The position numbers and the translations under genes are program-made. Below, piece by piece: positions 3,024 to 28,522 of a stretch of 31,751 nucleotides of DNA (its first letter is position 1; each line of letters starts with the position of its first letter). Below the pieces are notes generated by a model. The model did not search any database and had not been told where the DNA came from. It saw only the letters and a program-made list of their open reading frames with translations. This DNA is from a virus (Duplodnaviria; Caudoviricetes). The stretch covers positions 1-31,751 of IMG/VR virus record IMGVR_UViG_3300038312_000392, one strand, 5' to 3'.

Positions 3024-5192
3024 TTACACCTCCTCCGCGATCAGTTCCACGGCGGGGTCGAGGTAGAAGTACCCGGCGATGCTGTACCACGAATAATGGA
3101 TTTTCACGTCGAGCGCCCCGGCTTCGGTCACCTCGACGGGGATCTCCAACTTGAACGCCGTCAGGTCGTCGTCGTTCTCCCACACGCTCTCGGCGTCGCG
3201 GCTCCAGCGCCCGGCGGCGTTGCTGAACACCGTCTCGAACGTGCCGCCGCTCCGGGGGACGGCGACTTGCGCAACCACCTTGCGCCCCAGCTCGGAGAGG
3301 TCGGTGAACGCCTTGGCCGCGCAGTGGACGCGGAGGAGGTACTTGCCCGGCTCCTCCGGCATGACCCGCATGCCCTGGAACGGTTGCCGCCCGAGGGAAA
3401 GCCCGCCCGAACCGTCGGCGGAGTTGTTGGCGAGCTTGAAGACCGCCGGGGAGCCGCCGACGCGGTGGACGTTCCAGGTGTCGCAGACGTAGTTGACCGA
3501 GCGGCAGACATAGTGCCCGGCGTCGATCTCGTTGCCGCAGATGAAATTGTACCCGTTCCAGACGTTCGTCGCATTTTCGCCGAGGTTGCCCTTCAAGGCC
3601 CCGTTGGCGCTGTCGACGTAGATGAACGAGCTGTCGGAGTACCGCGAGCCGACGGCGGGGTCGTCCGCGCCCCCGGTGACGGCGGCGTTCGCCTTGCCGA
3701 GCGTGAGCGTCCCGATCCTGAGCGTGGTCGCCTCGGCCGCGAAGACCGCGTAGCCGGGATAGTAGCTCTCCACCGAGGCGAGGTCGGCGTTGGTGCGGCG
3801 CATTTTCACCGTCCCCTTCACGGCGCATTCGCGGAGCTGGCAGCCGAAGCTGTAGAGCGCCACGCCGCGCGGGTGGTTGACCGTGACGTCGCGGACGGAT
3901 ACCGGCTCCCACGAACCCTCGTTGTAGTGGCGCTCGCTGAACGACAGCTCCAGCGCCGCGCCGTAGGGGTACTGGTCGATGTTGTCCGTCCCGTACTTGA
4001 CCCAATCGTAGTAGTTGCCGTTCCGCTCGCCGTCGAACCCGCCGGTCTCGGCGAGATTGATCGCGATGTTGCGGATCGACTTCGACACGCCGGGGACGGT
4101 GCTGTTGGCGAAGCCGGAGAGCGAAACCACCCGCCCGGAGGTCTCGATCCGCCAGCAGCCGGGCAGATTGACGGTGATCCCGTCGATCAGGAACTCCCGG
4201 CTGCCGTGGCTGCGGATCATCGGCTGCCCGACGCTCAGCGTGGCCGGAGTTCCTTCGCCCAGCCGCCGTTCAAGGATGTCCACGGAGACCTTGCGGAGCA
4301 CGCAGTGGTCGTTGCAGGCGGCGTAGAAGAAGCTCGGCAGATAGCCCCAGGTCTTGTTGACGAGGATGTGGAAACGCATGTTTTCGTAATTCCCATACGC
4401 GCCGGTCTTGCCGCCGTTGGTGAGCTGCAAAACCGGCTGCATGCTCGGGCCGTAGTCGCCGCCGTATTGGCTGGTGGTGCAGTAGCAGTCGACGTCGTTG
4501 ACCGTGATGAAGCTGGCGTTCTGAAGGTAGATGCCGTAGCTGTAGCCGTAGTAATAGTCCTCCGCCGGAACCTGGTTGACGATGCAGTGCCGCATGGAGA
4601 AGACCTGCGCGGTGTTGATCTCCATGTAGGACTTGCAATTGTCGGAGCCGACGGCGGCGGTGAAGTCGGCGCGGTCGAGGTCGATCCCCTTCGCCCCGAA
4701 CTTGCAGTGCTCCAGCGAAATGGAGGCGGTCGGCTGGTCGGAGGGGAAGCGCATGATCGGGATGTAGGCCGGAGTCCCGTCGCGGAACAGGTACACCCGG
4801 TGGAGCAGCAGCGTCCGCAGCGCGGGGAGCTGGAACGTCCGCTCCTCGCCCGACCACGGGTCGCTGCCGGTGTCGGCCTTGACGTTGGCGTAGTCGTGGG
4901 CGTCGCCGCCCCAGGCGAGCCGGGCGGCTTCGGGGACGAGCGTCCACATGGCGTCGGCGGGCTTGGGCATGCCGAGGAACAGCACCCCGGTGATGGCGGA
5001 GGTGTTGCCGACAGGCATGTTGACCGCCGCGCTCTCCGCCGTGCGGCGGATGAGGAAGCAGGTGTTGTCGGTCATGTCCTCGACGGTATCCGGGAGCGCG
5101 GCGAGCGGCGTCCCCGGCGCGGAGCCGTCGCCGCCGTTCTCCGCCGACGGGTCGACGTAGAGGACTTGGAATTCAGTGTCGGAAAATATCAT
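3024..5192 (-). CDS. Large beta-rich protein, putative beta-helix tailspike or receptor-binding protein, 722 aa
   Basis: N-terminal LYVDPSA.NGGDGS.P.TP motif seen in pectin-lyase-fold proteins, repeated short beta-strand patterns, no signal peptide, located in the fibre module. Confidence 0.6.
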   Translation of the reverse strand: MIFSDTEFQVLYVDPSAENGGDGSAPGTPLAALPDTVEDMTDNTCFLIRRTAESAAVNMPVGNTSAITGVLFLGMPKPADAMWTLVPEAARLAWGGDAHDYANVKADTGSDPWSGEERTFQLPALRTLLLHRVYLFRDGTPAYIPIMRFPSDQPTASISLEHCKFGAKGIDLDRADFTAAVGSDNCKSYMEINTAQVFSMRHCIVNQVPAEDYYYGYSYGIYLQNASFITVNDVDCYCTTSQYGGDYGPSMQPVLQLTNGGKTGAYGNYENMRFHILVNKTWGYLPSFFYAACNDHCVLRKVSVDILERRLGEGTPATLSVGQPMIRSHGSREFLIDGITVNLPGCWRIETSGRVVSLSGFANSTVPGVSKSIRNIAINLAETGGFDGERNGNYYDWVKYGTDNIDQYPYGAALELSFSERHYNEGSWEPVSVRDVTVNHPRGVALYSFGCQLRECAVKGTVKMRRTNADLASVESYYPGYAVFAAEATTLRIGTLTLGKANAAVTGGADDPAVGSRYSDSSFIYVDSANGALKGNLGENATNVWNGYNFICGNEIDAGHYVCRSVNYVCDTWNVHRVGGSPAVFKLANNSADGSGGLSLGRQPFQGMRVMPEEPGKYLLRVHCAAKAFTDLSELGRKVVAQVAVPRSGGTFETVFSNAAGRWSRDAESVWENDDDLTAFKLEIPVEVTEAGALDVKIHYSWYSIAGYFYLDPAVELIAEEV

Positions 5193-6342: not shown

Positions 6343-6726
6343 TTAGTTGATGGTCTGCCACTGGATGCCGTCGGGCGAACCGCCGCTCTCGGAATCCGGA
6401 TGGCCGAAATTCAGGATGATTCTGACTTTCGTGGCGCTCGCCTGGGAATGGCAGGCCGCCACGCCGAGAAAGGCGTTGCCGAGGCTGTCGGGGGTCGCCG
6501 CGCTCGCGGCTTCGTTCCAGAAAACCCGGCTCCCGGCGGCGATGGCTTCGGCGGTTTTCACCACGTCGAAGATGCCTCCGAGGTGCAGCGCCCCCAGCTC
6601 GCCGCTTTTCACCGGGATCTTGACGATCCCCAGCAAGCCGCCGAAGCGGAGGATTTCACCCGCCTCCACGTTTCGGGTCGGGACGAAGTCCACCGCTTCC
6701 CCCCGTTGGACAAATGTCGCGTTCAT
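6343..6726 (-). CDS. DUF2190 family capsid decoration (cement) protein, paralogue 2, with C-terminal extension
   Basis: Start moved to MNATFVQRGEAVDF. Aligns by eye with the 20617-20946 protein. ATGA overlap with the heptosyltransferase stop. Confidence 0.85.
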   Translation of the reverse strand: MNATFVQRGEAVDFVPTRNVEAGEILRFGGLLGIVKIPVKSGELGALHLGGIFDVVKTAEAIAAGSRVFWNEAASAATPDSLGNAFLGVAACHSQASATKVRIILNFGHPDSESGGSPDGIQWQTIN

Positions 6727-7943
6727 CGTTCTTTCACCTCCATGGTTTGGATTTGCTTTATCCGGTCGAAAACCATTTTCGCCGGGATCATTTTCGTGCA
6801 TTCGAATTTGCCGCTGGGTTCCGTTTTTCGGGGACACCAGAGGAAGTCGAAGTGATTGAAGTCGCACCGCATGTCGTTCCAGCAACCGTGGCAGACCGTG
6901 GGGTTGTGGACGCGGTACGCCGTATGGAACTCATTGATCGGGTCGGTGAAGCCGGAGATCAAAATCACCGGGACGCGGCAGCACCACGCGAGCCAGCTCA
7001 GGCCACTCGAAAGCCCGATGAAAAACTCAGCGTCCTTGATGAGGTCGATCCGCTCTTGAAGCGGCAGGTCGCCGGTGAAATCCTCCGTTCCATGCGGGAT
7101 ATGATTCCACACATAATCCGTGCCGTACTCCGCCGCCCGGTCGATGCAGAGCACCCGGTAGCCTTGCGATTTCAGGTGCGCCACCACCTCGCGCCAGCCG
7201 GAGGGGTTGTTCCAATATTTGCATTGGGAACTCGCCTGGGACGCGATCACGACATAGGGCTTCTTGATCTTGCGCTTCGCCGTGAGCTTGACGCGGGGCG
7301 GCTCGTCGGCAAGGTTGCGCAGTCCGAGGATATGCCCCGCCGTCCGGTGCAGCCCCACCTGCCGGAAGTCGAACGGCTGGTGATCGGCGTCGCCGCCGAA
7401 AAACAGTCCGAGATTGTAGGTGGCGTAGGGTTCCAGTTTCGCCGCCTCTTCCTTATTAATAAAGGCGATTGCGGGGTACTGGTCGCGGAAGATCGCCGCG
7501 AGCTCCTGCGCCATCGAGCAGTAAAGCTCGCAGCCGTGCGCCTTTTGGAACCGCTCGACGTAGCTGAACCAAGCGATGGTATCGCCCAACGCCCCGACCG
7601 GGAGTTGCACCAAGACTTTTTTTCCGGCAAGATTGAGGTCATGGCTGAAAATCATTTCAGCACCCTCATAGATTTCCAGCCGGAAGCGGATGAAATATTT
7701 CTTCACGCTTTCGACCGTGCAACCGGGCTGCACGTCCATGCTGTAAAGCAGGCAGCCGGTGTCGAGATCGCGGAACACGCAACGGTAGTTTTTGCCCTTC
7801 GGGAACTGGACACGCAAGCCCCGGTTGAAGTCGAAGCGGATGCCGTCGACCGCCTCTATGACGGGGTCGTCGGGCGGCGGGGCGAATACCGGCTCGGACG
7901 GCTTGCCCGGTACGGAATCGCATTTTATGGTGAAGTCGTTCAT
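6723..7943 (-). CDS. tibC: Autotransporter strand-loop-strand O-heptosyltransferase (Aah/TibC family, GT9-like)
   Basis: GIRFDFN, KKYFIRFRLE, VGALGDTIAW (catalytic Asp motif), QPFDFRQVGLHRTAGHILG, KYWNNPSGW, DFTGDLPLQER, FIGLSSGLSWLAW, and four iron-finger Cys (CHGC...WCP...FEC). TAAGGAG RBS overlaps the upstream stop. Confidence 0.95.
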   Translation of the reverse strand: MNDFTIKCDSVPGKPSEPVFAPPPDDPVIEAVDGIRFDFNRGLRVQFPKGKNYRCVFRDLDTGCLLYSMDVQPGCTVESVKKYFIRFRLEIYEGAEMIFSHDLNLAGKKVLVQLPVGALGDTIAWFSYVERFQKAHGCELYCSMAQELAAIFRDQYPAIAFINKEEAAKLEPYATYNLGLFFGGDADHQPFDFRQVGLHRTAGHILGLRNLADEPPRVKLTAKRKIKKPYVVIASQASSQCKYWNNPSGWREVVAHLKSQGYRVLCIDRAAEYGTDYVWNHIPHGTEDFTGDLPLQERIDLIKDAEFFIGLSSGLSWLAWCCRVPVILISGFTDPINEFHTAYRVHNPTVCHGCWNDMRCDFNHFDFLWCPRKTEPSGKFECTKMIPAKMVFDRIKQIQTMEVKER

Positions 7944-7951
7944 GATACTCC

Positions 7952-9478
7952 TTACAAATATTGGATGTAGCCGCCGGTCTCGACGGTGACGATTGCCCCG
8001 ATTGCCGAGCTTACGGCGTAGGCGCTCGCGCCGCTGTAGACGTGGAAGCTGCCGCCGCTGGCGACCGAAACCGAGGTGGCGTTGCAGTAGCGCGAGAGCA
8101 GAAAACTCCCGCCCGCTTCCACGGTCACGGAGGCGATCTCGCAGGTTTCGTAGACACCCAGCCAGCCGCGCGAGCTCACGACGATGTCCGCATAGGAGCA
8201 GTTCTGCGAGACGTGGAGGCTGCCGCCGTTTTCGATGGTCGCGCCCGATCCGGCGCAGTTGTAGCGGATGTACATGATTCCGCCGGAGTTGACCGTGGTG
8301 TGGAACACCGAACCCGCGTTGGAGACGTACTGCGTCCCCGCGAGGACGGTGGAGGTCGCCGCGCCGCCGTTGGAGACGTACATGCAGCCCCCGGCTTCCA
8401 CCTCGACGTTGACCGCCCGCCCGTAGTTGCTGACGTACAGATATCCGGCGGAACTCACCATCGCCCTGACCGCCGTGCCGTGGAAGTCGGCGTAAAGATA
8501 GCCGTTCGAGTGGATCACCGCGTCATACGCCTTGCCGCTCGAATAGAGGTACATCCGCCCGTTGCCGGAGATTTGCGGCCACTCCGAAACCGCACCGAAG
8601 CTGACGAACTGCGTCCCGCCGCTCGAAAGCACCGTGCTTATCGCGCTCGCGTAGTGGTAAAGGTGCTGTTGATTCAGAACCAGAACATACCCATGCGCCG
8701 TGCCGTTGCTGGTCCAGAACGTGCCGTACTGGTTCGTCCCGGTGACCTTGGTCAGCTCGTCGTTGCCCCACACGTGGTGGTTGATGATGCCGCCCGCCGC
8801 GACCACCGCGTCGGTGCAGTTCGCGCCCGAGCTGACGTAGAGGTACGCGCCGCTCATGACGGTCGTGTGCTCCACGGCGCAGCTGTTGTAGCAGTACATG
8901 CTCGCGAACGCGCAGATCGTGGTATGAATGGCACGGACTCCGGACGAATTGCCGATGTCGAAACGCCCGTTGCTCGACACGACGCAGCTTTCGAAGGAGA
9001 CCGACACGCCTTGCCCGTAGAGCGAACCGCCCACCGAGACGTTGGCGCGGCGGACGATTCCGCCGGAGTGGACGAAGACCCGCGCGTTGCTGTGGACTTC
9101 GACCCCGTCCGCCAGCCCGCCGCTCACATAGATGTAGCCATAGTCGTTCACGTCCGTCATGCTTGCCGTGCCGCCGGGGCTGACGTGAAGGTAGCCGTTG
9201 CTGTTGACTACGGTATTTTCAGCGTGGCCGCCGTCGCGAACGAATACGCTGCCGCCGTAGTTGACGGTGGTGTTGAGCGCGGAACCGCCATTGTAGACCT
9301 CCATGCGGCTGACGCGGCTGGAGACGATGAAGCGGCTCCGCATGGTCATCGCGCTCTGGTTGCAACTACCGTTCCGCAGAAACGTGAACACGCCGCGCGA
9401 ACCGTAGACCGGCCCATCCACCGTGAGGTGGCCGCCCGCGCCTATCTTGTTGAACTGGTATGGTATTCGCATGGTCAC
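7952..9478 (-). CDS. AIDA-I/TibA-like strand-loop-strand repeat beta-helix protein without autotransporter domain
   Basis: About 19-aa repeats (GGSALNTTVNYGGSVFVRD, GGHAENTVVNSNGYLHVSP and so on) and an Ag43/AIDA-like VTGTNQYGTFWTSNGTA segment. Start is GTG 9478 or ATG 9472. Confidence 0.9.
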   Translation of the reverse strand: MTMRIPYQFNKIGAGGHLTVDGPVYGSRGVFTFLRNGSCNQSAMTMRSRFIVSSRVSRMEVYNGGSALNTTVNYGGSVFVRDGGHAENTVVNSNGYLHVSPGGTASMTDVNDYGYIYVSGGLADGVEVHSNARVFVHSGGIVRRANVSVGGSLYGQGVSVSFESCVVSSNGRFDIGNSSGVRAIHTTICAFASMYCYNSCAVEHTTVMSGAYLYVSSGANCTDAVVAAGGIINHHVWGNDELTKVTGTNQYGTFWTSNGTAHGYVLVLNQQHLYHYASAISTVLSSGGTQFVSFGAVSEWPQISGNGRMYLYSSGKAYDAVIHSNGYLYADFHGTAVRAMVSSAGYLYVSNYGRAVNVEVEAGGCMYVSNGGAATSTVLAGTQYVSNAGSVFHTTVNSGGIMYIRYNCAGSGATIENGGSLHVSQNCSYADIVVSSRGWLGVYETCEIASVTVEAGGSFLLSRYCNATSVSVASGGSFHVYSGASAYAVSSAIGAIVTVETGGYIQYL

Positions 9479-10914
9479 GCCTCATAGCTGTAAGCGTAGT
9501 TGACCTGAAGCCGGAGGTTGTTGACCGCTCCAGATTTATACACCGCCCGGATCACGAATACATGAACCATCGCCGCGTTATTTTTGAGCGGCAGCGTCTC
9601 CGGAATGTCGATTCCGACCATGCTCGAATCGGTGCTCCCGACGGTGACGCCAGTGACCGTCTGCGAACAGGGCGCGTGGTATTCCCAAGTGAGCATGCAA
9701 CCCGCGACCCCGGCATACGCCGCGCCGCCGACCGTTGTTTGCACGGCGGTAAAGTCGATGGCGAGATCGGGCGAAGCGTTGACGGTTGTGTTGCGGATGA
9801 TCGGGTAGTCGAGGAACAACGTCTTGGGGTTCGCGGCGCTATACTCCCGCTGATAGACCGGGTTCGAGACTTCCGTCATCGCGTGGGTGTGAGCCGAGGG
9901 CGCGAAGCTCGACGGCTTCCCCGAAACCCCGCCCCACGGCACGGCGGCAGCGGAATCCGCGCTGACGGCGGAATTCACCTTGCCATCGCCGTCCGGGTCG
10001 TACACCGAGGCGAGCATGTCGCCCATCCCCTGACCGTCGTCGCCGATGTATTTCACCCAAACCGCCTCGACAAAGTCGGCGGCGGAAATCTCCGGCATCT
10101 CGACCGTCGAATGCAGTTCCGCGCGGTATTTCAGCGTGTTGGAGGGTGTGAGTGAAAATCCGGTTCCAACCGCGTCCGTGGCGTAGGCAACGTAGCAGAA
10201 CGCATCCACGCCCGGATCGCCCTTCGCGCCCTCGGCCATTTTCAGTGGCTCGCTCCACTGCGCCCCCACGCCGGAGGCGCTGCGGAAGCGGATATAGCGG
10301 TCACTGTCGGCTTGAGCGTCGTGCCAATCTTCGGCGTTCGCGGAGAATTGCAGCGTCACCCCGGCAGCGATCATGGCGGTGACTTGCGCCGCCGTCAGAT
10401 AATCCGGTGAAATATTGGTGGGGTTGCCGAGACTGGTGATCCGGTTCCGCACCGTGAAATTCTCAATCTGCAACACGAAAATCTGCCGGGCGGCGACATC
10501 GTAGCCGATCAGCTCGCCCACCAGACCCGACTTGCTCTTCTCCGAGCCGAGCCACGCCGCCAGCTCCTCCGTGTTCATGTTGCTCATCGGGATCGTTATC
10601 TCGGTGTATTCGACCTCGCTACCCTCTGAATTTTCAATGATGGAAGCGACCGTAATGTCGCCGTTGTCGCCAATGAGTTTATAGGCGGTAGCCTCCGAGA
10701 AATCGTTGTCCATCGCCCACTGCCACGAGGCGATCCCGGCGAAAGTGGCCAAGGGATACGGCGTGTTGCCGTCGCGCTCGGCGAAGAGGCGCATTTTCAA
10801 ACACGCCTCCACACCGCGCACCAGCGTCGGCGGCGTGACCGATTTCGCGTTGGCGTAGTCCCGGACCGCGCCCAGCGTCTCGTTCGCCGCCACATAAAAA
10901 ATGATATTCTGCAT
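9475..10914 (-). CDS. Tail fibre protein, 479 aa
   Basis: GAKGDPG collagen-like stub, YVAYATDAVGTGFS, GDMLASVYDPDGDG and VPWGGVSGKPSSFAPSAHTH fibre motifs. Confidence 0.8.
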   Translation of the reverse strand: MQNIIFYVAANETLGAVRDYANAKSVTPPTLVRGVEACLKMRLFAERDGNTPYPLATFAGIASWQWAMDNDFSEATAYKLIGDNGDITVASIIENSEGSEVEYTEITIPMSNMNTEELAAWLGSEKSKSGLVGELIGYDVAARQIFVLQIENFTVRNRITSLGNPTNISPDYLTAAQVTAMIAAGVTLQFSANAEDWHDAQADSDRYIRFRSASGVGAQWSEPLKMAEGAKGDPGVDAFCYVAYATDAVGTGFSLTPSNTLKYRAELHSTVEMPEISAADFVEAVWVKYIGDDGQGMGDMLASVYDPDGDGKVNSAVSADSAAAVPWGGVSGKPSSFAPSAHTHAMTEVSNPVYQREYSAANPKTLFLDYPIIRNTTVNASPDLAIDFTAVQTTVGGAAYAGVAGCMLTWEYHAPCSQTVTGVTVGSTDSSMVGIDIPETLPLKNNAAMVHVFVIRAVYKSGAVNNLRLQVNYAYSYEA

Positions 10915-11273
10915 CAGTCGCTCCTCAGTTGTTCCAGCCGAGCCACCGCTTCCGGGTGGTCGGCATTGAAGTGTTCCCGGATCGCGTCAAGCACCTCGCA
11001 CCAGCCCCTGCCGATGTCGCGGTCGCGGTTTTCCTCGATCAGGATCGCGAGGTTACGGACGGCGAGCGCCGTTTCGCGATGGTCATACATCAGATGGTCG
11101 GCGGCGAGCCGGAGCTGGCCGGAGATCGCGTCCCGGTTGTCGTCCGCATACAAAAACTCGTTCCAGAGCGACCACGCTTTCACGACATGCTTTTTCGCGC
11201 AGACCGTGCATTGGTCGAACGGGCTGACGCGGGTTACGGAAACTCCGTTTCGGGTGTGGCAATTGCAGCTCAT
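10914..11273 (-). CDS. Hypothetical Cys/His-containing protein, 119 aa
   Basis: In-operon ORF abutting both neighbours. CNCH and CTVC..KH motifs. Confidence 0.7.
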   Translation of the reverse strand: MSCNCHTRNGVSVTRVSPFDQCTVCAKKHVVKAWSLWNEFLYADDNRDAISGQLRLAADHLMYDHRETALAVRNLAILIEENRDRDIGRGWCEVLDAIREHFNADHPEAVARLEQLRSD

Positions 11274-12005
11274 TTATTCAAACTCCGGGTCGGGAGGCCG
11301 GGAGTAGCTTTGCTCCTCGGTCTCGGTTATGTGTTCTTCTGCGGAGAGTTCGTGCAGCTCCCATCGCTCGGCTTTCGTGATGTGCCGCTCCTCGAACTCG
11401 CCGTCGCGGCGGGCGTAATAGCAGTCGCCGTCATAGAGCGCCGCCTTGTAGGCGGGGACTCCGTCCGCGACCACTTCGTACAGCTTTTTCGTTCCGGGAT
11501 GGTATGCCCATGAAAAGATTCCGCCGTCGCGGAACTGCCCCGAAATCAGCAGCCGGTTCGCCTGGAACGGATCGTAGGAAGCGCGGTACAGAAACGCCGC
11601 TTCGGGGATCGCCAGCGTAACCGTCCGCCCCGGCTCGGCGATGCGGATCGGGGTGCGCCGTCCGGCGTAGGCCACACGGTCTTTCCGCGCGAAACCGACG
11701 TCGGCTTCCAGCAGCGGTGTCGCCGCATTGCCGATGCCGAGAATCCGGTAGAGCCGAAACTGGCGGTCGGTTTTTGCGCCGCCCGCGATGAACGAAATCT
11801 TCCACATGCCGTCCTCGAACTCGGCGCAGGGGCCGCACTCGGTCGCGTCCTCCGGCAACCCGGTCTTGATCCGCTTCCACCGCGTCCCGGTGAAGTGATG
11901 GAGCTTCCACAGCCCGTTCGCCATAATGCAGCAGAGCTGTTTCCCGCCGGGCGCGGCGAACGGCATGTGGGTAAAGCGATTGTCCTTGAATTCAAACATT
12001 ATCAT
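11274..12005 (-). CDS. Hypothetical beta-rich protein, 243 aa
   Basis: Start moved to the ATG overlapping the upstream TGA (ATGA). Repeated beta-strand pattern. Confidence 0.7.
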   Translation of the reverse strand: MIMFEFKDNRFTHMPFAAPGGKQLCCIMANGLWKLHHFTGTRWKRIKTGLPEDATECGPCAEFEDGMWKISFIAGGAKTDRQFRLYRILGIGNAATPLLEADVGFARKDRVAYAGRRTPIRIAEPGRTVTLAIPEAAFLYRASYDPFQANRLLISGQFRDGGIFSWAYHPGTKKLYEVVADGVPAYKAALYDGDCYYARRDGEFEERHITKAERWELHELSAEEHITETEEQSYSRPPDPEFE

Positions 12006-12403
12006 CCTCCGCCCGGACAGGGCCATGTTATGTTTCCGTTTTCATCGACGCAGCCCATCTGCAGCTGCATGTAGCCGTTGTAGCTGTAGCCGGAGACGAA
12101 CTCGTTCGGCAATCCCGTGAGGACACCGTCACCGTCGATGCTTCCGTTGTTGTAGATCGAGCCGGAACAGCCGTTGTCGCTGTTGTTCCAGTGCGATTCC
12201 CCCACGTCGCGGATGCGCCACCTTGCTCCGGGCAAGCCGATGTGCTCGCCCTGATACGGGGTCAAGTCCCAGCGCGGCGAGCTGGGATTGGTGATCTTGC
12301 TCGCGATGACCTTCGGTCGACAACACGGGCAGATCCAGCAGGCGATCAGCCGCCCTTTTTTCAGAAGGAGGACTTTTGATTTATAGTCGCGCCAGAGCTT
12401 CAT
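12002..12403 (-). CDS. Hypothetical Cys-rich tail-region protein, 133 aa
   Basis: Start MKLWRDY with ATGA overlap. CWICPCC motif. Confidence 0.7.
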   Translation of the reverse strand: MKLWRDYKSKVLLLKKGRLIACWICPCCRPKVIASKITNPSSPRWDLTPYQGEHIGLPGARWRIRDVGESHWNNSDNGCSGSIYNNGSIDGDGVLTGLPNEFVSGYSYNGYMQLQMGCVDENGNITWPCPGGG

Positions 12404-14010: not shown

Positions 14011-17000
14011 CTATGCATAGTTCAGCGTTCCGCCGCCGGTTTCGAGTTTTTTCAGGAGCTTGTTGGTCTCCTTGCCTTGTTTCGCCATCTGTTCGGTGGC
14101 GTTTGCCGTCCTTTCAGCCTCGGTTCCACCGCCGCCCAGCATGGCGTTCAGCGATTCGGTGAAAAAGCTGCCGAGCGTCCGGTTGCGGTCCGCCGCCTGA
14201 CTCGTCCCCTCCTGCGCGTCATGGAGTTTCGCCTCGTATTTGTCGAGCATGGATTCGGCGCGACTGTAGCCCTCCTGCGCCTCGTTGATCCGTTGCCGTT
14301 CATCGTCGTCGATCTTGCCGTCCGCTTTGGCGGATTCCAGCTCCGCCTCGAAAGTGGCCTTTGCCGCTGCAGCGGCTTGGCGGTACTGCTCGATCATCTC
14401 ATTCAGCATAGCCGCGCCCGCTTCGGGATCATTCTTCAGCGTCTCGTCAATTTCCCGATCCACTTCGCGCTCCTCGCGGCGGCGTTGGATTCCCTGTTCG
14501 GTTTCGGCGAAACGGCGCTCAAGATTGGCAACGTCGCGGTTGAACTCCTCGACAGCCTTGTCCTGCGCGTTGGCGATCCGCTCGGCGGCGATGGAATCGG
14601 CTTCGGCAAGTTTCTTTTCCAACTCGGCGATCTTGTCCTTGTCCTGAAGCGCATCGGCTTTCGAGCGCTCGAAATCAAGCATGGTCTGGATCAGTTTTTT
14701 GTATTCATCGTTCAGATTCTGGATCTCAATGATCTCGTTTTCGAGTTCGCTCCGGCGTTCTTTCGCCAACTGCGCGTCGATGGCCGCCACGCGGGATTCC
14801 GCATCGGCGGCGGTCTGGGCGGAGACCGCCCGGCGCTGCTCCTCGGCTTGAAGGTTCTCTTCCGTATTCTCCCCTTCGCCGGTGAGCGCGTTGGCGTCGC
14901 CGCCTTGCAATGCCTTCATCCGTTCACGCGCCGCGCCCATCCGCTTCAGGTTGGCAATCGCGCGATCTCCGTTTGCTTCAAGCTGCTTGACCGCCTCCGC
15001 CTGTTTGCCGGTCATTTGGCTCCACAGATTGTGGTTCCAGTAGGACATCAGCGATTCGTCCTCCTTGCGGAGCTCCTTCAAATTCGCCTCGTACTCGGCG
15101 ATTTCCGCCTCCAGCTCGGAGAGAGTGGCGCGTTTCATCGACTCGTTGAGCTTGTCCTGCGCGTCGGCGGCGAGGGTCAGCTTCCCCGCCACCGCGTCGA
15201 TGCCCGCCCCGAAGTCGCCGTATTTCGCCGTCAGCTTGCCGGTCAGGGCTTCCGCCTCGGCGAGTTCGGCGGCGGAGAGCTTCTGCTTTTCCGAAAGCTG
15301 CTTCAAGCGCTCCATCCGCGTCTGATCGACGCGGCGCTGATCATCGCCCTTTTGCCGGAGAGTCTCCATCTTGTCGGAGAGGTCGGCGGTGTGCCGCGCC
15401 GCCATGCTGAGGCCGATCACCACCGCCGCGAGCGCCGCCCCCACGCCGATCAGAATCCACGAGATCGGGATCGCGCAGAAGGCCGCCGCTGCCGCCGTCG
15501 CGGCGAGATACCCCGCCGCCACCGCTTTCGCGCTCACCGCGAGCAGGAAGTTCGCCACGCTCCCCGCCGCGGAACTTGCCGTAGCCTTGAGGTTGGCGGC
15601 GGAAAACAAGCCTGCCACGGAAGCGGCAAACGCCCGTGCACCCGACAGTGCTTTGGTCGCCAGCGCGGAAATCCCGATGACGGCGGTGTGCGCCTTGGTC
15701 GAGGCGGTCGCCGCCACCGTTGCGAGGCTGAACGATTTCAGGGCGGAGGTGGCTTGCAACCACTTCGCCGCCAGCATTGATTTCGCGGTGCTCGCGGCTT
15801 CGGCGTTCGACATCAGCACCAATCCAGCCGCGATCTGCTTGGCGCGAACGTCGATGGGCAGATTTAACGCCGCGAGCAACTGCGAAGTCCCAACCATAGC
15901 CGGAATCGCCGCATTGCGGTAGTTCGCGAACGCCTGAGTCAAGAGCGAGAGCGAATTGCCGAGCGTCGTACCCTGCGCCACGCACAAGCCCTGCACGAAA
16001 GCAAAACCTTTCAGCACCGTCTGTACCACGGCGATTCCGGCGGCGGCTCCCTTGGCGGCAATGCCGATGCCGATCAGCGTCACGCCCAGTCCCGCCGCGC
16101 CCGCCACCACGGCGGCGATTGCCGTGACCGTGCCGTGGTTTGCCTCGATCCACTTGGTCGTCTCGTTGATGACGGCAGTGATCTTGTCGATCAAAGGCTG
16201 CAAGGTGCCGGTGATCGCCTCGGAAAGCGCGTTCGACGATCCCTCGACCGCCGACCACAACAGCCGGAACGAGCCGCCCAGCCCGGCGTCCATCGCGGCG
16301 GCGGTTTCGGCGGCAACACCCTCCACGTCGCGGAGCTTCGCCAGCATCGCGTCGAGTTCGTCGGTGTTCGCGCCCAGCGTCAGCCCGGCGAGTGAACCGC
16401 GGATGTCGAAGATATCCTCGGCAAACGCCAGCTTTTCGGCGGAGGGCATCGCGTTCATCACTTTGCCGATGTCGCGCATGATCTCCGCCATCTTGCGGAG
16501 GTTGCCGTTCGCATCGACCGTCTCCACACCGACCGCCCGGAGCTGATCCTGCACCTTCACCTTGGTGAACTGCGAGAAGCTTTTCCGTAGCGCCGTTCCG
16601 GCGAGCGAACCCTTGATGCCCATGTTGGCGAGCACCGCCAGGCTGGCGGCGGTCTCCTGAATGGATTCACCCGCCGCTTTCGCCTGCGGGCCGCCCATCT
16701 TCAAGCCTTCAAAAAGGTCGGAAAGCGTCTGCGCCGAACTGTTCGTGGCAACCGTCAGTACATCGGAAACCGCCCCCATCTTCGATGCCTCGATTCCGAA
16801 GATCCGCATCGCGTTGGCGGCGATGTCCCCCGCATCGGCAAGCTCGGTTCCGGTCGAACGGGCGAGGTTCAACACTGCGTCGATAGAGGCTTGGATTTCT
16901 GTCGGAGAGAAGCCCATGCGCCCGAGCGATACCATCGCATCCGCCGCCTGCTGCGCGGTATAACTGGTGTCGCGCCCGAGCCGCTGCGCCGTCTTGGTCA

Positions 17001-17268
17001 GGGATTTGAAGTCCGCCTCGGTCGCCTGCGTGACGGCGTGGACAAGCCGCATCCGGTCGTCGAACCCGGCGAAAGACTTCAGCGCCAGCGCCATCGGAGC
17101 CGCCAATGCCCCCGAAACCATCAGCATATCCCGGCCAATGGCGGTACAGGACTTGCCGAAGCTCTGAAGCTGCGCCTGGGCGGACGCAAGGTTCCGCCGG
17201 AGCTTGCTCGTTTCGGCGGTCACCTCCACATAGGCCGCCCCGGCGCGGATATTGCTGGATATGGACAT
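14011..17268 (-). CDS. Tail tape measure protein (TP901 family), 1085 aa
   Basis: AGAAYVE N-terminus, LGRDTSYTA.QAADAM..LGRMGF and GIKGSLAGTALR core, Ala-rich helical middle and coiled-coil C-terminus. Confidence 0.95.
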   Translation of the reverse strand: MSISSNIRAGAAYVEVTAETSKLRRNLASAQAQLQSFGKSCTAIGRDMLMVSGALAAPMALALKSFAGFDDRMRLVHAVTQATEADFKSLTKTAQRLGRDTSYTAQQAADAMVSLGRMGFSPTEIQASIDAVLNLARSTGTELADAGDIAANAMRIFGIEASKMGAVSDVLTVATNSSAQTLSDLFEGLKMGGPQAKAAGESIQETAASLAVLANMGIKGSLAGTALRKSFSQFTKVKVQDQLRAVGVETVDANGNLRKMAEIMRDIGKVMNAMPSAEKLAFAEDIFDIRGSLAGLTLGANTDELDAMLAKLRDVEGVAAETAAAMDAGLGGSFRLLWSAVEGSSNALSEAITGTLQPLIDKITAVINETTKWIEANHGTVTAIAAVVAGAAGLGVTLIGIGIAAKGAAAGIAVVQTVLKGFAFVQGLCVAQGTTLGNSLSLLTQAFANYRNAAIPAMVGTSQLLAALNLPIDVRAKQIAAGLVLMSNAEAASTAKSMLAAKWLQATSALKSFSLATVAATASTKAHTAVIGISALATKALSGARAFAASVAGLFSAANLKATASSAAGSVANFLLAVSAKAVAAGYLAATAAAAAFCAIPISWILIGVGAALAAVVIGLSMAARHTADLSDKMETLRQKGDDQRRVDQTRMERLKQLSEKQKLSAAELAEAEALTGKLTAKYGDFGAGIDAVAGKLTLAADAQDKLNESMKRATLSELEAEIAEYEANLKELRKEDESLMSYWNHNLWSQMTGKQAEAVKQLEANGDRAIANLKRMGAARERMKALQGGDANALTGEGENTEENLQAEEQRRAVSAQTAADAESRVAAIDAQLAKERRSELENEIIEIQNLNDEYKKLIQTMLDFERSKADALQDKDKIAELEKKLAEADSIAAERIANAQDKAVEEFNRDVANLERRFAETEQGIQRRREEREVDREIDETLKNDPEAGAAMLNEMIEQYRQAAAAAKATFEAELESAKADGKIDDDERQRINEAQEGYSRAESMLDKYEAKLHDAQEGTSQAADRNRTLGSFFTESLNAMLGGGGTEAERTANATEQMAKQGKETNKLLKKLETGGGTLNYA

Positions 17269-17295: not shown

Positions 17296-17324
17296 TTGAA
17301 AAACCCAAGCGTAGGGTTTATAAT
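17296..17324 (+). promoter_or_regulatory. Near-consensus sigma70 promoter with an internal palindromic operator
   Basis: TTGAAA-N17-TATAAT. AAACCC-N7-GGGTTT inverted repeat at 17301-17319. Confidence 0.8.
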
Positions 17325-17356: not shown

Positions 17357-17596
17357 ATGCCGAAATTTTTCATGTTTCTCGGGTTCTGGGTCGGAAGATT
17401 CTCCCACGAGGAAGATCGCGCCCATGTGCATGTTGTGAAATTCGGGTCACCGGAAGCGATGAAAGTTTGGCTCGAGCCGGACGTTGAAATTGAATACATC
17501 AAAGGCATCAACGCGGCGACGGCAAATAAAATCCTTAACGAAATCAGGAGGCGGAAAGATGAATGCCTTGAAAAATGGAACAACGCTGACAGCTAA
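17357..17596 (+). CDS. DUF4160 family protein (putative toxin of a TA-like pair)
   Basis: MP......G....F...E...HVHV...AMKVWLEP...EKWN pattern. Confidence 0.85.
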   Translation: MPKFFMFLGFWVGRFSHEEDRAHVHVVKFGSPEAMKVWLEPDVEIEYIKGINAATANKILNEIRRRKDECLEKWNNADS

Positions 17597-17963
17597 GGTG
17601 CTGGAACTTGGTCGTGACTTCATGCTCGTTGACTATTGCGGCAAGGTTTATCGGATTGACTTTGAACTTTATCCATACTTTAAAAGCTGTTTCGTGTCTG
17701 AGCTTTACAATGTGGAAGCCAGTGCGGTCGGCCTGCATTGGCCGGACGCCGATATCGATATCGAGGTCGAGTACTTGGAGCATCCGCCGAAAAATCCAAG
17801 CATGGTTTCGGTCGAATGGTGGAATGAGCAACGCCGCCGCCAGATGTCGCGCCTTGGCGCTGCCGGCGGTTCCGTCCGCACGCCCCGGAAGTCCGCCGCC
17901 AGCCGCGCCAACGGAGCAAAAGGCGGCAGACCAAAGAAGAAACCGGAACCGAGCTTGGCTTGA
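17559..17963 (+). CDS. DUF2442 family protein (putative antitoxin) with basic C-terminal tail
   Basis: Start moved to MNALKNG. YP.F, GLHWPDADIDI and KSAASRANGAKGGRP motifs. Overlaps the DUF4160 gene. Confidence 0.85.
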   Translation: MNALKNGTTLTAKVLELGRDFMLVDYCGKVYRIDFELYPYFKSCFVSELYNVEASAVGLHWPDADIDIEVEYLEHPPKNPSMVSVEWWNEQRRRQMSRLGAAGGSVRTPRKSAASRANGAKGGRPKKKPEPSLA

Positions 17964-20265: not shown

Positions 20266-20620
20266 CGGCAATTTCTCCTGTTTCTTTGGTGTGGATGCGG
20301 CAGGTCGTATGCGCTGTTCCCGACCACCGCCAACACGGTTCGCCGTTGGGGGCGAGAACTTCGTAAAGCCTGCCACTGTATTCGATTTTGTCGCCGCGTT
20401 CCGGCGGCGCACCGAGTTCGGAAAGCGCGATCAGAAAGTCGCGGCTCTCCGTCCGGACGGTCACGCCGTATTGATCCTCGACACGGAACAGCGTCCGCCC
20501 GAGCGCGGCGCTGACCGCGACTTTCCCGCCGCCTTTCCGGCGATAAAGCACCGGAACGGTGAGGTGCGCGGAGCGGTTGGCTTCCAGCCACGCCGCCGCC
20601 TGTTCCAGCATGCCCATCAA
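20258..20620 (-). CDS. Head closure or head-tail adaptor protein (FII-like)
   Basis: PERGDKI......YEV motif, located after the decoration protein. Confidence 0.75.
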   Translation of the reverse strand: MMGMLEQAAAWLEANRSAHLTVPVLYRRKGGGKVAVSAALGRTLFRVEDQYGVTVRTESRDFLIALSELGAPPERGDKIEYSGRLYEVLAPNGEPCWRWSGTAHTTCRIHTKETGEIADG

Positions 20621-20946
20621 CCGTTCAGGAGGACGAGTATGGTGGCATCATCCGCCGCTGCATCACCTACCGCTTTGCCGATCAGCGTGTTGCCGGTGGC
20701 GGTCGTCACCACCACGCCGTTGGTCGCGTCCCAATAGACCTTCTTGCCGAAGGCGATGGCGGCGGCGGCGGCTCCTTTCGGGAACTCATACACGCCGACC
20801 ACCGCCACTGCGCCAAGTTTCCCGGCTTCGATGTCGAGCTTCGCCACGCCGACGAGATCATTTTCAATCACCAGATCACCGGCGGCGACCGCTGTTTCTG
20901 GGGTAAAATTGATGGATTCGCCCTTTTGCACATATCTTGCAGTCAT
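20617..20946 (-). CDS. DUF2190 family capsid decoration (cement) protein, paralogue 1
   Basis: Start MTARYVQKG. VAAGDLV, GVAKLDI.AG..G, GVYEFPK and GKKVYWD motifs. Immediately after the capsid gene. Confidence 0.9.
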   Translation of the reverse strand: MTARYVQKGESINFTPETAVAAGDLVIENDLVGVAKLDIEAGKLGAVAVVGVYEFPKGAAAAAIAFGKKVYWDATNGVVVTTATGNTLIGKAVGDAAADDATILVLLNG

Positions 20947-21014
20947 AAACAGTCTCCATTTTTTGCCGGTCGGAGACCATATAGCCCGACCGGTGGTTGA
21001 TTTATTCTCTATGC

Positions 21015-22997
21015 TCAGTTGGCCACGCCGTTGGCCTTCACCATGCCGCGGAAGTCCTGCTCCCTCACTCCGAGGTCGAAGTAGACGCGGAACCACATCC
21101 CCAGCGTGTTGAAGTCCGTCTCGCCGCGCTCAATGGTCGGGGTGCGCCGCCCTTTGAGGAATCCCAGCTCGAAGGTGTCGACGCTACGTGGGTCGCCGAA
21201 CAGGTACCAGCCCGACTGCGACGCGCCGTCATAGGCGGAGTTCGCCAGATAGGGGCTGGAGACCACCTGCAAATGCTCGTCGGCGAGGACGTTCAACGAT
21301 GGGCGCACGACATTGTCGGCGCCGCCAGCCATGATAAGGGTCGCGCCCTGAGTCAGTTCGACGGCGAGGTGTTTCAGCGCGGTCGGCACGAGCAGGAAGC
21401 GCGGCTCGACCGAGATCGGCTGCCCGTCCGCATCCACCTGGTCGAGGTAGAGCTGGACCGCCTTTTTCAGCGAGTCGGCGGAGAGCGTCGAGGTCGCGCC
21501 GGTGAGTAGGTTGCGGTGGCTGGCATGGAACAACGCCTTGCCATCGTTCTGCGCGGGATTCCGCAGGAGGCGGCTGAAGAACAGCTGGTCGATCAACCGC
21601 GCCGCGCGGTTGCCCATCGCCGCCGGGACTTTCATGAATGCCCCGAGATCGTCGTTGATGATCATCTTGCGGGTCAGGCAGAACTTCTTGCCGTAGGTCT
21701 CCAGCTGATTCTTGGCGCTCTCCTCAACCAGCCCGCCATCCTTGATTTCGCCGTCCGGCGCGACCGGCAGGAGGTCGCCCACGTCTGTCAGTCGGAAGCG
21801 GTCGTTTTCCTTGAAGTCGTTCAGGTCGCCAGTCGAGCAGAGCTTCGTCGCGATGACCGGCTGCGCCTCATAGCTCTGGAGCAATTTCTTGTTCGCCACG
21901 TTCGAGAGGATGCCCGGCAGCGAGACGCTGGAGAACGCGGCGCGGATGGTGTCGTTGTCGAAGCCACGCCCATAGGGGATGCCGTCGAGCTTCATGCATT
22001 CGACCATGAGCTGGCGGAGTGGCATGTCCATCTCCGCCATCCCGGCCTCGACCGCCTGCGCCCCATAGGATTTCTCCAACTGCTCGGGGCTGACACCGAC
22101 GCGGAGGCACATCGCCGCCTCGATGGTCTTACGCATCTCGCCGCCCTCGGGGCGGGATTTCACGCTGATCGCGGCGCTGGCGGCGGGGCGTTCGGCGCGG
22201 ATGGTTTCCAGCACCTTTCGGGAAACCGCCTCGGGCGTCCACCCGGCGGCGACCGCCTGTTTCTCGATTTCGGGGAACTCGCCATCGCAGATCGACTGGA
22301 TGGCGGAGACGCGCTCGCGCTCGGCCTTGATCGCGGCTACGGCGGCCTCATGGGCGGTTCCGGCCTCGGCGGCGGCTTGGATCTGCGCCGGGGCGGTTTC
22401 GCCCTCCGCAGGCTGGACAACGGTGGCTTTGGCTGCCGCTACTTCGGGCTGTCCGGCTTCGGTCTTATCTTCGTTCTCTTTCGACATGATGGTTGCTTCT
22501 CCTTGGTTGAGATTGAAATTGGCGGCGACCTTCATTCTGGTCGATGCGTCCGCGCCGACCGCGACGACGGACACCTCCCGCAATGCTGATTTTTGGACAT
22601 GGTAGAAAGGCGCGTCGAGAACCTTTCCGTTGACGGCGCGGCTTCCGGCCTTGACCAGCTCGCACTCCTTGACGTCGGCCCCGATGGAGAGCTGCCAGTC
22701 GGCGCCCGCCTTGGACTGCGCGACGATCTCGCTGGCTTCGCCTCCGCCGGAGACGATCTCGCCATTGATCTCCAGTGTGCCGTCGCGCACCGTGGCGTTC
22801 ACCATCCCGACACGCGAGGTGGTCTTGTTCTGATGGTTCGTCAGCAACGGGACGCTTTCGGGGATGTCCATCCCGGCGAGGTCGACGACGACGGGGTGCT
22901 TCCAGCCCGTCAGCGGCATCTTGCCGCCGGAATAGGCCAGCCCGGCCACTTTCGGCTTCGTTTCCCCCGAAGCCTCGATCACGATATACTCGTTCAT
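21015..22997 (-). CDS. Fused prohead protease, scaffold and major capsid protein (Mu gpT-like capsid domain)
   Basis: N-terminal PLLTNH, WQLSIGA and LREVSVVAVGAD protease motifs, AERERVSAI scaffold, and TYGKKF.LTRKMIINDDLGAF and RVYFDLGV capsid motifs. Confidence 0.92.
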   Translation of the reverse strand: MNEYIVIEASGETKPKVAGLAYSGGKMPLTGWKHPVVVDLAGMDIPESVPLLTNHQNKTTSRVGMVNATVRDGTLEINGEIVSGGGEASEIVAQSKAGADWQLSIGADVKECELVKAGSRAVNGKVLDAPFYHVQKSALREVSVVAVGADASTRMKVAANFNLNQGEATIMSKENEDKTEAGQPEVAAAKATVVQPAEGETAPAQIQAAAEAGTAHEAAVAAIKAERERVSAIQSICDGEFPEIEKQAVAAGWTPEAVSRKVLETIRAERPAASAAISVKSRPEGGEMRKTIEAAMCLRVGVSPEQLEKSYGAQAVEAGMAEMDMPLRQLMVECMKLDGIPYGRGFDNDTIRAAFSSVSLPGILSNVANKKLLQSYEAQPVIATKLCSTGDLNDFKENDRFRLTDVGDLLPVAPDGEIKDGGLVEESAKNQLETYGKKFCLTRKMIINDDLGAFMKVPAAMGNRAARLIDQLFFSRLLRNPAQNDGKALFHASHRNLLTGATSTLSADSLKKAVQLYLDQVDADGQPISVEPRFLLVPTALKHLAVELTQGATLIMAGGADNVVRPSLNVLADEHLQVVSSPYLANSAYDGASQSGWYLFGDPRSVDTFELGFLKGRRTPTIERGETDFNTLGMWFRVYFDLGVREQDFRGMVKANGVAN

Positions 22998-26429: not shown

Positions 26430-26810
26430 TCAGATGCCGAGAAACAGCCGCTCCTGCTCCCTCCATGATTCAGGAATGGCGTTCCGCAGCGCGGCGACAG
26501 TCAACGACTTCGGGATATCGCCCATGAGTATCCTGTGGATTATGGCCGGTGACAGCGTCGCCAAACGGATCGTTCTTGCTATCACCCCTTGGTCGATGCC
26601 CAGCTCCTTTGCCATCTCCACGGTGTTGGCGAACCGCCCCTCGTCGATGCACTTCTGCCAGCGGAAGGCACGGGCGACGTGGAGCACCAGCGGCTCGCAT
26701 CCGTCCATCGGGCTGCCGGGGGCGATGATCCGCCGTCTGCCGGATATCCCGCGCAGGACATAGTCCACCGTCACTTCAAGATTCCCGTTCTCCAATATCC
26801 TACTCTGCAT
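26430..26810 (-). CDS. HTH protein associated with serine recombinase modules, 126 aa
   Basis: ARAFRWQ...D.G.F....EMAKELGID...IAR.IRLA.LSP.I and P.SW.EQ motifs. Overlaps the recombinase stop. Confidence 0.8.
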   Translation of the reverse strand: MQSRILENGNLEVTVDYVLRGISGRRRIIAPGSPMDGCEPLVLHVARAFRWQKCIDEGRFANTVEMAKELGIDQGVIARTIRLATLSPAIIHRILMGDIPKSLTVAALRNAIPESWREQERLFLGI

Positions 26811-28077
26811 TGTATGCCTCCATTATCGATTGGATTCCGGCCGTGCGGACTTCCAATTTGATGTCTTTTTCGTTTATGCTCACACGCTCAAGCAGCATCT
26901 GCATGAGCCGTTGCCGCTCTCCCGGAGTGACTTCATCCCAGAATCTCTCCGAGAACATCTCGATGATGTCGCGCGGCTTCTCTCCAGTCTGTTTCGCCAC
27001 TTCGAGGACGATCTCCGGGGCGGCGAGGATCGTCTTTATCTGCTCGTGGACGATCTTCTCGATCTCCCCCGCCGAGACTGATTTCACGGGGCATATCGAT
27101 TCCGGACGCTTCCGATCCTTGGCGCATTGGTAATAATGGTGGATGCGCCCATGGCGCTTCGACCGGATCGGCGTCATCGAGCCATTGCAATGCCCGCATT
27201 TCAGGATGTCGCGGAGCGGGGCGGCGAACTCCAGACGACTGGTGTTGTCCCGGTCTCCGCGCATAGGTGCGTTGGCCGCCAGGAACTTGCGACTCATCTC
27301 CCATGTATCTCGGTCGATGATCGCCTCCTGTTCGCCTTGGAATATCTCACCCTTGTAGAGGATTTCCCCGATGTAGTGATGGTTGTTGAGCACGCCGTAG
27401 ATCTTCTGCTTCGTCCATGGCTTCCCCTGCTTCGTCCAGCGCTCCTCCTTGTTCAGCTCGTAGGCGATGTTCTTCGGCGACTGGATTTCGAGAAAACGCC
27501 GGAAAATCATCCTCACCAGCTCCGCCTCCGCCGGTTCGACCGCCAGCTTCTTGTCTACAACCTTGTAGCCCAGCGCAACGCTGCCGCCGACCCACTTGCC
27601 TTTCTTCCGGCTGGCTGACATCTTGTCGCGAATGCGCTCTGCGATGACCTCGCGTTCGTATTGCGCGAAGGTGATGAGGATGTTCAGCATCATCCGCCCG
27701 GCACTGGTCGCCGTGTTGATCTCCTGTGTGACCGCCACGAAATCGACGTTCCATTGGTCGAACTTCCTGCTCAATTCAGCAAAATCGCAAATTGAACGCG
27801 AGAGCCGGTCGAGCTTATAGACGATGATGATGTCGATCAATCCGGCCTCCACATCGGCGAGCAGCTTCTTCAGGCCGGGCCGGTTGACGTTGCCGCCCGA
27901 CCAGCCGCCATCGTCATAGCGTTCCGGCAGGCACACCCACCCGTTCGACTTCTGGCTGGCGATGTAGTTCTCCCCCGCTTCCCGCTGGGCGTCGAGCGAG
28001 TTGAACTCCTGCTCCAAGCCGTCCTCGACGCTTTTACGCGTATAAATCGCGCAACGTTTCGGTTTGATTTCCTCCAT
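26800..28077 (-). CDS. Large serine recombinase or integrase
   Basis: CAIYTRKS catalytic Ser, YKLDRLSR, FAQYERE.I.ER, recombinase domain, and CGHC...C...C zinc ribbon. Confidence 0.95.
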   Translation of the reverse strand: MEEIKPKRCAIYTRKSVEDGLEQEFNSLDAQREAGENYIASQKSNGWVCLPERYDDGGWSGGNVNRPGLKKLLADVEAGLIDIIIVYKLDRLSRSICDFAELSRKFDQWNVDFVAVTQEINTATSAGRMMLNILITFAQYEREVIAERIRDKMSASRKKGKWVGGSVALGYKVVDKKLAVEPAEAELVRMIFRRFLEIQSPKNIAYELNKEERWTKQGKPWTKQKIYGVLNNHHYIGEILYKGEIFQGEQEAIIDRDTWEMSRKFLAANAPMRGDRDNTSRLEFAAPLRDILKCGHCNGSMTPIRSKRHGRIHHYYQCAKDRKRPESICPVKSVSAGEIEKIVHEQIKTILAAPEIVLEVAKQTGEKPRDIIEMFSERFWDEVTPGERQRLMQMLLERVSINEKDIKLEVRTAGIQSIMEAYNAE

Positions 28078-28078
28078 G

Positions 28079-28522
28079 TCACTTCACCCCGAAGAATAGT
28101 TTGCCGTTCCAGCGCGTCCCTGTGATTTCACGGGCGATGGCCGAAAGCGAGCGGTATGTCTTATCCTGGAACTCGAATGTGCCGTCGCCAAGGGCGGTTA
28201 CCTCGTATTCCGCCCCTTTCCAGACGCGCCGGAACCTCGTCCCCTCGCGCCGCGTCACTTTCGTCGCCCCGGCGATCTGGAGGTTCGCCAGCGGGTCTTT
28301 CGCCGCCACCGCCTCCAGCGTCTCCATGTCCCTGTCGGAAATCCCTCCGTAATAAATCTCCTGCAGCCGGTAGGCGATCCGCTTGCGCAGATTCCGCGCG
28401 CTCGTCTTGCCGGGCTTGAACCCGTAAAGCTCCTCGAACTTCTCCGCCAGCTCCGTCATCCCTTTTCGGTTGACGGCGTCGAGCTGGCGGGCGAGTATTT
28501 CCTCGTTCCTTTCCATTTTCAC
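28079..28522 (-). CDS. DUF2924 family protein
   Basis: IAYRLQE..YGG, GTRFRRVWKG and YRSLSAIAREITGTRWNG..FFG motifs. Start is GTG 28522 or ATG 28516. Confidence 0.92.
   Translation of the reverse strand: MKMERNEEILARQLDAVNRKGMTELAEKFEELYGFKPGKTSARNLRKRIAYRLQEIYYGGISDRDMETLEAVAAKDPLANLQIAGATKVTRREGTRFRRVWKGAEYEVTALGDGTFEFQDKTYRSLSAIAREITGTRWNGKLFFGVK

Follow-up and report, generated by a model that had tools for sequence, protein, structure and literature searches.

The window analysed here, a stretch of 31,751 nucleotides (positions 1 to 31,751 of IMG/VR record IMGVR_UViG_3300038312_000392), comes from a lambda-like phage of Victivallis-type Lentisphaerota. On its minus strand we found a gene for an Aah/TibC-family glycosyltransferase (the enzyme) next to a gene for a protein of AIDA-type repeats (the rod), which follows the gene of a likely tail fibre, p479. 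By its gene content, this is an enzyme-substrate system of the bacterial autotransporter heptosyltransferase (BAHT) family placed in a phage tail. An earlier note on this DNA had put the 2 open reading frames (ORFs) at 6723-7943 (406 aa) and 7952-9478 (508 aa), minus strand, separated by 8 nt, and had proposed that they pair an enzyme with its substrate; the coordinates are correct, and both the family assignments of the 2 proteins and their pairing are supported. The features of the locus are:

9475..10914, minus strand: likely tail fibre of 479 aa (p479), from a profile match to Bxb1 gp4, matches to PHROG families and co-occurrence
7952..9478, minus strand: stand-alone AIDA/TibA-type beta-helix with 19-aa rungs, the likely acceptor (TIGR04415, PF16168)
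7948..7952, minus strand: ribosome-binding site (AGGAG) of the enzyme gene; it overlaps the rod stop codon (read from the sequence)
6723..7943, minus strand: Aah/TibC-family protein O-heptosyltransferase of 406 aa (TIGR04414, 4RAP, aligned residues)

The enzyme and its repeat rod

The enzyme matches TIGR04414 over the whole protein with 536.9 bits (curated cut-off 200) and aligns with TibC (4RAP) over residues 19-396 (E 7.7e-131), with a beta-barrel domain at the N-terminus (PF21129, residues 33-93) and a GT9-type catalytic domain (PF01075, residues 223-336). It is about 51% identical to copies from E. coli plasmids. The family assignment of the earlier note, with its GxLGD aspartate and 4 cysteines, is borne out residue by residue: D121 of the GALGD motif aligns with the catalytic D110 of TibC, and C351, C354, C370 and C382 align with the iron-finger cysteines C339, C342, C358 and C370. 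At the donor site, S238, K242, R298 and W317 correspond to T226 (serine for threonine here), K230, R286 and W305, and the hydrophobic cluster of the thumb is present (Y277, V278 and F380). TibC is reported to require D110, K230, R286, W305 and the 4 cysteines, while its P300 limits the donor to ADP-D,D-heptose and Aah, with a serine there, takes both forms (PMC4358343). In the phage enzyme this position is S312, as in Aah. Catalytic, donor-site, stereoselectivity and cysteine positions were identical in all 28 aligned cassette copies (the window and 27 full-length copies); a further copy of 343 aa (L154) has a divergent end and looks frameshifted. The alignments thus place the protein in the BAHT family with an intact active site, and it would likely move heptose from ADP-heptose to serine.

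The rod ORF of 508 aa begins at a GTG at 9478, its start overlapping the p479 stop codon, but the ATG at 9472, giving 506 aa, is the more probable start, because relatives begin with MxIPYQ and the database copy has 506 aa. TIGR04415 (120 bits against a cut-off of 30) and PF16168 both match the rod, whose period is 19 aa, with a lag-19 identity of 0.219 against 0.083 +/- 0.013 in shuffled sequences (0 of 2000 shuffles reach 0.219). The AIDA-type repeats of about 19 aa described by the earlier note are therefore real. Its description of them as rich in VxSGG/VSSxG turns was overstated, as we counted 3 [VI]xSGG, 5 SGG and 1 VSSG; serine is still common at turns, being found at the second turn in 9 of the 17 detected rungs. 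Across these rungs the serine share at 4 turn positions is 0.29-0.53, values inflated by a profile seeded on SGG motifs. In the structure model, the rod is a beta-helix through its last residue with a TibA-type acceptor fold, whose closest folds are bacterial autotransporters and not phage proteins, and residues 1-38 are unfolded in the monomer. The N-terminus is non-repeat and conserved, residues 26-50 being among the best conserved of the protein. Elsewhere the rod varies: relatives range from 470 to 728 aa through gain and loss of rungs, and it is the most divergent of 5 compared proteins (mean distance 0.46 versus 0.30-0.38).

The closest known systems are TibC-TibA of enterotoxigenic E. 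coli (ETEC) and Aah-AIDA-I of diffusely adhering E. coli (DAEC) (4RAP, 4Q1Q), with which the phage pair shares the enzyme family, all tested positions and an adjoining beta-helix of 19-aa rungs. The differences lie in the acceptor and its surroundings. No signal peptide was indicated in the rod, where the top 11-residue hydropathy in the first 45 residues was 0.88 (no dedicated predictor was used), and no autotransporter barrel was found, PF16168 being the sole Pfam match and the AIDA-I and Ag43 models falling far below cut-off. These absences, together with 11 cysteines, argue that the rod is not an autotransporter. Moreover, the gene order is reversed in the phage, with the substrate first, and the pair is part of a tail operon, a fibre domain being inherited along with it.

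Joint inheritance with the end of the fibre

The earlier note had called the upstream gene a tail fibre. A profile of 51 p479 relatives matched gp4, the tail collar fibre of Bxb1 (E 4.5e-7), the match covering a short stretch of the form W..V..KP..F.P..H.H, and 2 PHROG tail families were weakly matched by 22 and 20 of the 51 relatives, while a Pfam scan gave no match. In its model, p479 has separate N-terminal, middle and C-terminal parts and no clear fold match. The assignment as a tail fibre is therefore likely but not established. Its C-terminal domain of about 135 aa (about 9475-9882), which the earlier note had missed as a part of the inherited unit, is the predicted docking site of the rod.

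We surveyed 125 loci matching the N-terminal part of p479, forming 102 clusters at 95% nucleotide identity; the window itself is left out, some duplicates are included and one locus (L121) is identical to the window. Results showed that the C-terminal domain is present in 77 loci, and that the rod is the next gene in 70 of the 70 whose downstream gene could be decided. The domain is absent from 48 loci, and the rod is present in 0 of the 38 among them that could be decided. Of those 38, 13 share other genes of the phage family, the remaining 25 being distant matches and weak controls. Of the 70 rods, 53 were decidable for what follows, and the enzyme stands behind 49 of them, 42 (33 clusters) on contigs with other genes of the family and 7 on contigs without. 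The earlier note had named the absence of such a pair from the tail modules of relatives as one refutation of its proposal; the pair is kept there in most decidable loci. The misses are a rod truncated at a prophage end (L100) and 3 whole rods followed by a different gene (L099, L155 and L157), the latter indicating that a phage enzyme is not always needed beside the rod.

In a quick tree of an upstream tail gene, the cassette-free phages need at least 2 changes, and one supported branch holds all 3 cassette states. In close pairs picked by us, the enzyme has dN/dS values of 0.07-0.22 and the rod values of 0.09-0.27, so both genes are under purifying selection similar to that on the fibre gene. 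No promoter-like site was found between the cassette genes, which overlap or lie 8 nt apart. Taken together, the genomic comparisons establish a three-part cassette, made of the fibre C-terminal domain, the rod and the enzyme, that is real, conserved, selected and inherited together.

Two relatives with the cassette carry further genes downstream. In L081 (15388-19341), which has the full cassette, the tail region encodes a protein of 1317 aa that contains a domain of the GH9 cellulase family. In L010 (11536-15098) the cassette is followed by genes of 549, 138 and 374 aa, which by eye look like the target, accessory and reverse transcriptase genes of a diversity-generating retroelement.

Operon, hosts and related enzymes

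Profile scans of the window proteins gave one minus-strand run of terminase, portal, protease-capsid fusion, tail tube and tape measure genes, continuing through 5 further genes to p479, the rod, the enzyme, a second cement-family gene and a 722-aa protein. The relevant neighbours are:

14011..17268, minus strand: tail tape measure protein, in the same co-oriented head-tail operon (TIGR01760, PF10145)
6343..6726, minus strand: second capsid-cement/decoration-family gene (PF09956, E 1.2e-19), its start overlapping the enzyme stop (ATGA)
3024..5192, minus strand: likely tailspike-type beta-helix protein of 722 aa, from synteny and an Atlas feature match of 0.92 to a pectate-lyase-like cluster, the match being a lead only

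Since the ATGA overlap joins the enzyme stop with the start of the cement gene, the enzyme is tied into the structural operon. The 722-aa gene lies directly behind the fibre gene in several cassette-less relatives, and the other of the window's 2 capsid-cement paralogues (20617-21096, minus strand) lies beside the capsid gene. Upstream of the fibre (10914-12403, minus strand), small Cys-rich genes of 119 aa (CxC, CxxCxxKH) and 133 aa (CPCC) are kept; in L037 and L010, genes with similar Cys motifs neighbour glycosyltransferase genes, TibC-type and others. A DUF4160 gene and the ORF after it lie on the opposite strand (17357-17963, plus strand), flanked by the tail chaperone genes and the tape measure; they stand behind a near-consensus promoter-like site (17296-17324) and look like a small toxin-antitoxin-type insert. 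A block of DUF2924, serine recombinase and 126-aa genes (26430-28522, minus strand) separates the terminase from a cytosine methylase ahead of the portal; it appears inserted, because in the Victivallis vadensis prophage (L222) a terminase-like ORF runs directly into the methylase.

This prophage, found in a V. vadensis genome bin, is the closest named relative (93% identity for p479, 92% for the enzyme). Named relatives are mostly from Lentisphaerota, with a few in bins labelled Elusimicrobia, Clostridia and Kiritimatiellae. As the earlier note had stated, heptose-synthesis genes are missing from the window as far as it was scanned with Pfam, which covered 33 + 6 proteins and thus part of the ORFs. 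Its suggestion that the donor comes from the host is plausible from the gene content of the V. vadensis bin, in which HldD is above cut-off, while HldE-kinase-, HldE-transferase- and GmhA-like genes fall below theirs. The same bin carries a third, apparently chromosomal, enzyme copy and repeat proteins with open frames of 2305 and 1331 aa. In other Victivallales the enzyme has a type I secretion system on one side and giant repeat proteins on the other. Across the phylum, 201 genomes were sampled, and 30 of them have the enzyme above cut-off, prophage copies counted. These host enzymes and repeat proteins had escaped the earlier note. The chromosomal TIGR04414 enzymes of Lentisphaerota (such as L225, L227 and L221) are the nearest non-phage relatives of the phage enzyme (56-61% identity) and fall in one clade with it. 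Their substrates are open frames of 1300-5800 aa with further domains, that of L225 behind a type I secretion system; the phage rods, unlike them, are 470-728 aa of repeats with an N-terminus of their own.

In a tree of 29 enzymes picked from a larger set, the copies of phages and hosts group in a single clade, separate from the proteobacterial ones (SH-aLRT 99), with the 9 host copies as one branch (94) within it; "host" here mostly means that no window phage gene lies within about 1.5 kb. Monophyly of the cassette copies was not rejected (AU p 0.27), so the direction of transfer cannot be read; adoption of the pair by the phage, as the earlier note had it, is not supported as stated if it means a transfer from a bacterium.

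TibC-type enzymes also occur in other phages. Close relatives with no AIDA rod detected nearby are found at L037 (2527-13050), L007 (9800-11963), L006 (3604-4764) and L193 (18982-20259), L037 having 2 TibC-type copies plus further glycosyltransferase-like genes. In an unrelated contractile-tail prophage (L008, 5877-8562), a TibC-type gene and a gene for an AIDA-plus-Hint protein lie between the baseplate spike and gp25-type genes, accompanied by a divergent regulator gene, possibly as an independent insertion.

A proposed heptosylated tail adhesin and its alternatives

Considering these comparisons and models, we lean towards the reading that the rod is heptosylated by the enzyme and attaches to the fibre, where it serves as a tail adhesin. 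The enzyme would draw ADP-heptose from the host late in infection, and the turn serines of the rod would be modified in the cytoplasm, as both the enzyme and the signal-less rod would be made there. The rod would then attach to the C-terminal domain of the fibre, probably through its N-terminus, given the conservation of residues 26-50 and the lack of fold of residues 1-38 in the model, and the virion would carry it as a sugar-coated tail adhesin. A similar arrangement is known from T2- and S16-like phages, whose gp38 is a separate tip adhesin docked on the tail fibre and encoded directly after the fibre gene. The rod gene likewise lies directly behind a fibre gene and is inherited with the fibre C-terminal end, and its attachment is predicted to be N-terminal; unlike gp38, the rod has an unrelated fold and its docking is a prediction. 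We know of no glycosylation of gp38-type adhesins. By analogy with TibA and AIDA-I, on which heptose is reported to act mainly on folding, stability and oligomer state (PMC3835316), the sugar would most likely serve to fold and stabilise the rod and keep it from aggregating, rather than as an immune shield.

Several observations weigh against this reading. The fibre label rests on one short motif, and the p479 model has no clear fold match; the window rod has only 3 exact VxSGG motifs, and the SGG seeding inflates the serine shares at its turns. The host HldE- and GmhA-like genes are below cut-off, and the hosts' own enzymes and giant repeat proteins offer an alternative substrate. Co-inheritance of adjacent genes can arise by linkage alone, and L099, L155 and L157 keep a whole rod with no enzyme behind it. 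Finally, L006, L007, L037, L193 and 70 more distant viral loci have TibC-type enzymes with no AIDA rod detected nearby, which makes acceptors other than AIDA rods possible.

The alternative that survives best, although we consider it unlikely, is that the rod is glycosylated but forms no lasting part of the virion, acting as a chaperone or scaffold of fibre assembly, or as a free adhesin or decoy released at lysis. The gene behind a fibre gene is often a chaperone, the strict co-occurrence with the fibre C-terminal domain suits a chaperone as well as an adhesin, and no recognised virion-attachment domain was found in the rod, with its autotransporter-like model. However, the varying length and the divergence of the rod would be expected of an exposed, host-facing part, and a dedicated glycosyltransferase would be unusual for a chaperone.

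Slightly less probable again is that the enzyme is a lysogenic-conversion gene, which would modify the giant AIDA-repeat surface proteins of the host and so alter adhesion or mask the phage receptor. Suitable substrates exist in the V. vadensis bin and beside the secretion systems of other Victivallales, and Aah and TibC are reported to be interchangeable and to recognise structure, not sequence (PMC3835316). On the contrary, the enzyme has no promoter-like site of its own and is tied to structural genes on both sides, unlike the DUF4160 pair; the hosts already own the enzyme; and in fibre-gene loci it occupies this position only behind the rod.

We give still less weight to the idea that the enzyme acts on a wider set of virion proteins (the fibre, the spike or further Ser-rich parts) or uses a nucleotide sugar other than ADP-heptose, the rod being one acceptor or not the main one. 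The same catalytic residues occur in rod-less phages beside other glycosyltransferase genes (L037 and L007), V278 of the thumb is often threonine in phage copies, and a serine replaces TibC T226. That serine, however, is likewise present in host and Pandoraea copies; R298, W317, K242 and the Aah-like stereoselectivity serine are all kept; and the adjacent protein has, in its model, the known acceptor fold. It is very improbable that the particle has no use for the pair, which would then be a passenger or chiefly a drain on host ADP-heptose: cassette-less relatives that keep the other tail genes do exist, but selection on the pair resembles that on the fibre gene, its position is fixed across more than 30 sequence clusters, and its GC and GC3 lie within the range of head and tail genes. 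None of these observations bears on a sink, and nothing in the analysis speaks for the ADP-heptose drain or the immune shielding that the earlier note had listed as possible roles.

An extension of the heptosylated-adhesin reading, which we regard as rather unlikely, is that a swappable three-part cassette of fibre end, autotransporter-type beta-helix adhesin and dedicated heptosyltransferase builds a hyper-heptosylated tip that resembles the glycosylated repeat proteins of the host, with host binding by like-to-like AIDA contacts. The host clade may also have taken its enzyme from phages as the reservoir, since the host copies make up a single branch inside a more diverse set of phage copies.

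In mycobacteriophages (Che8 and others), phage glycosyltransferases are reported to modify the phages' own structural proteins (Freeman et al. 2023, via PMC11256854 and PMC12619734), with glycans on capsid and tail-tube subunits that shield against antibodies (PMC11256854, PMC12619734). The system described here resembles them in that a phage-encoded glycosyltransferase would act on a structural protein of the same phage, as predicted from the genes. It differs in that a BAHT enzyme would add single heptoses to many serines of one dedicated beta-helix. No phage BAHT enzyme or phage AIDA rod was found in the literature searched, mainly open-access main texts, and supplementary gene tables could list such genes.

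Aah/TibC enzymes are known to assist the surface adhesins of bacteria; should the heptosylated-adhesin reading be true, they decorate virus particles as well. For the role of the sugar, relatives in nature that have the whole cassette, the rod alone or neither are ready comparisons. On this reading, the system would be a second, mechanistically different route of virion glycosylation, in a phage of a Gram-negative host and directed at one dedicated beta-helical tail protein instead of capsids, and it would show an AIDA-type rod functioning without a secretion system.
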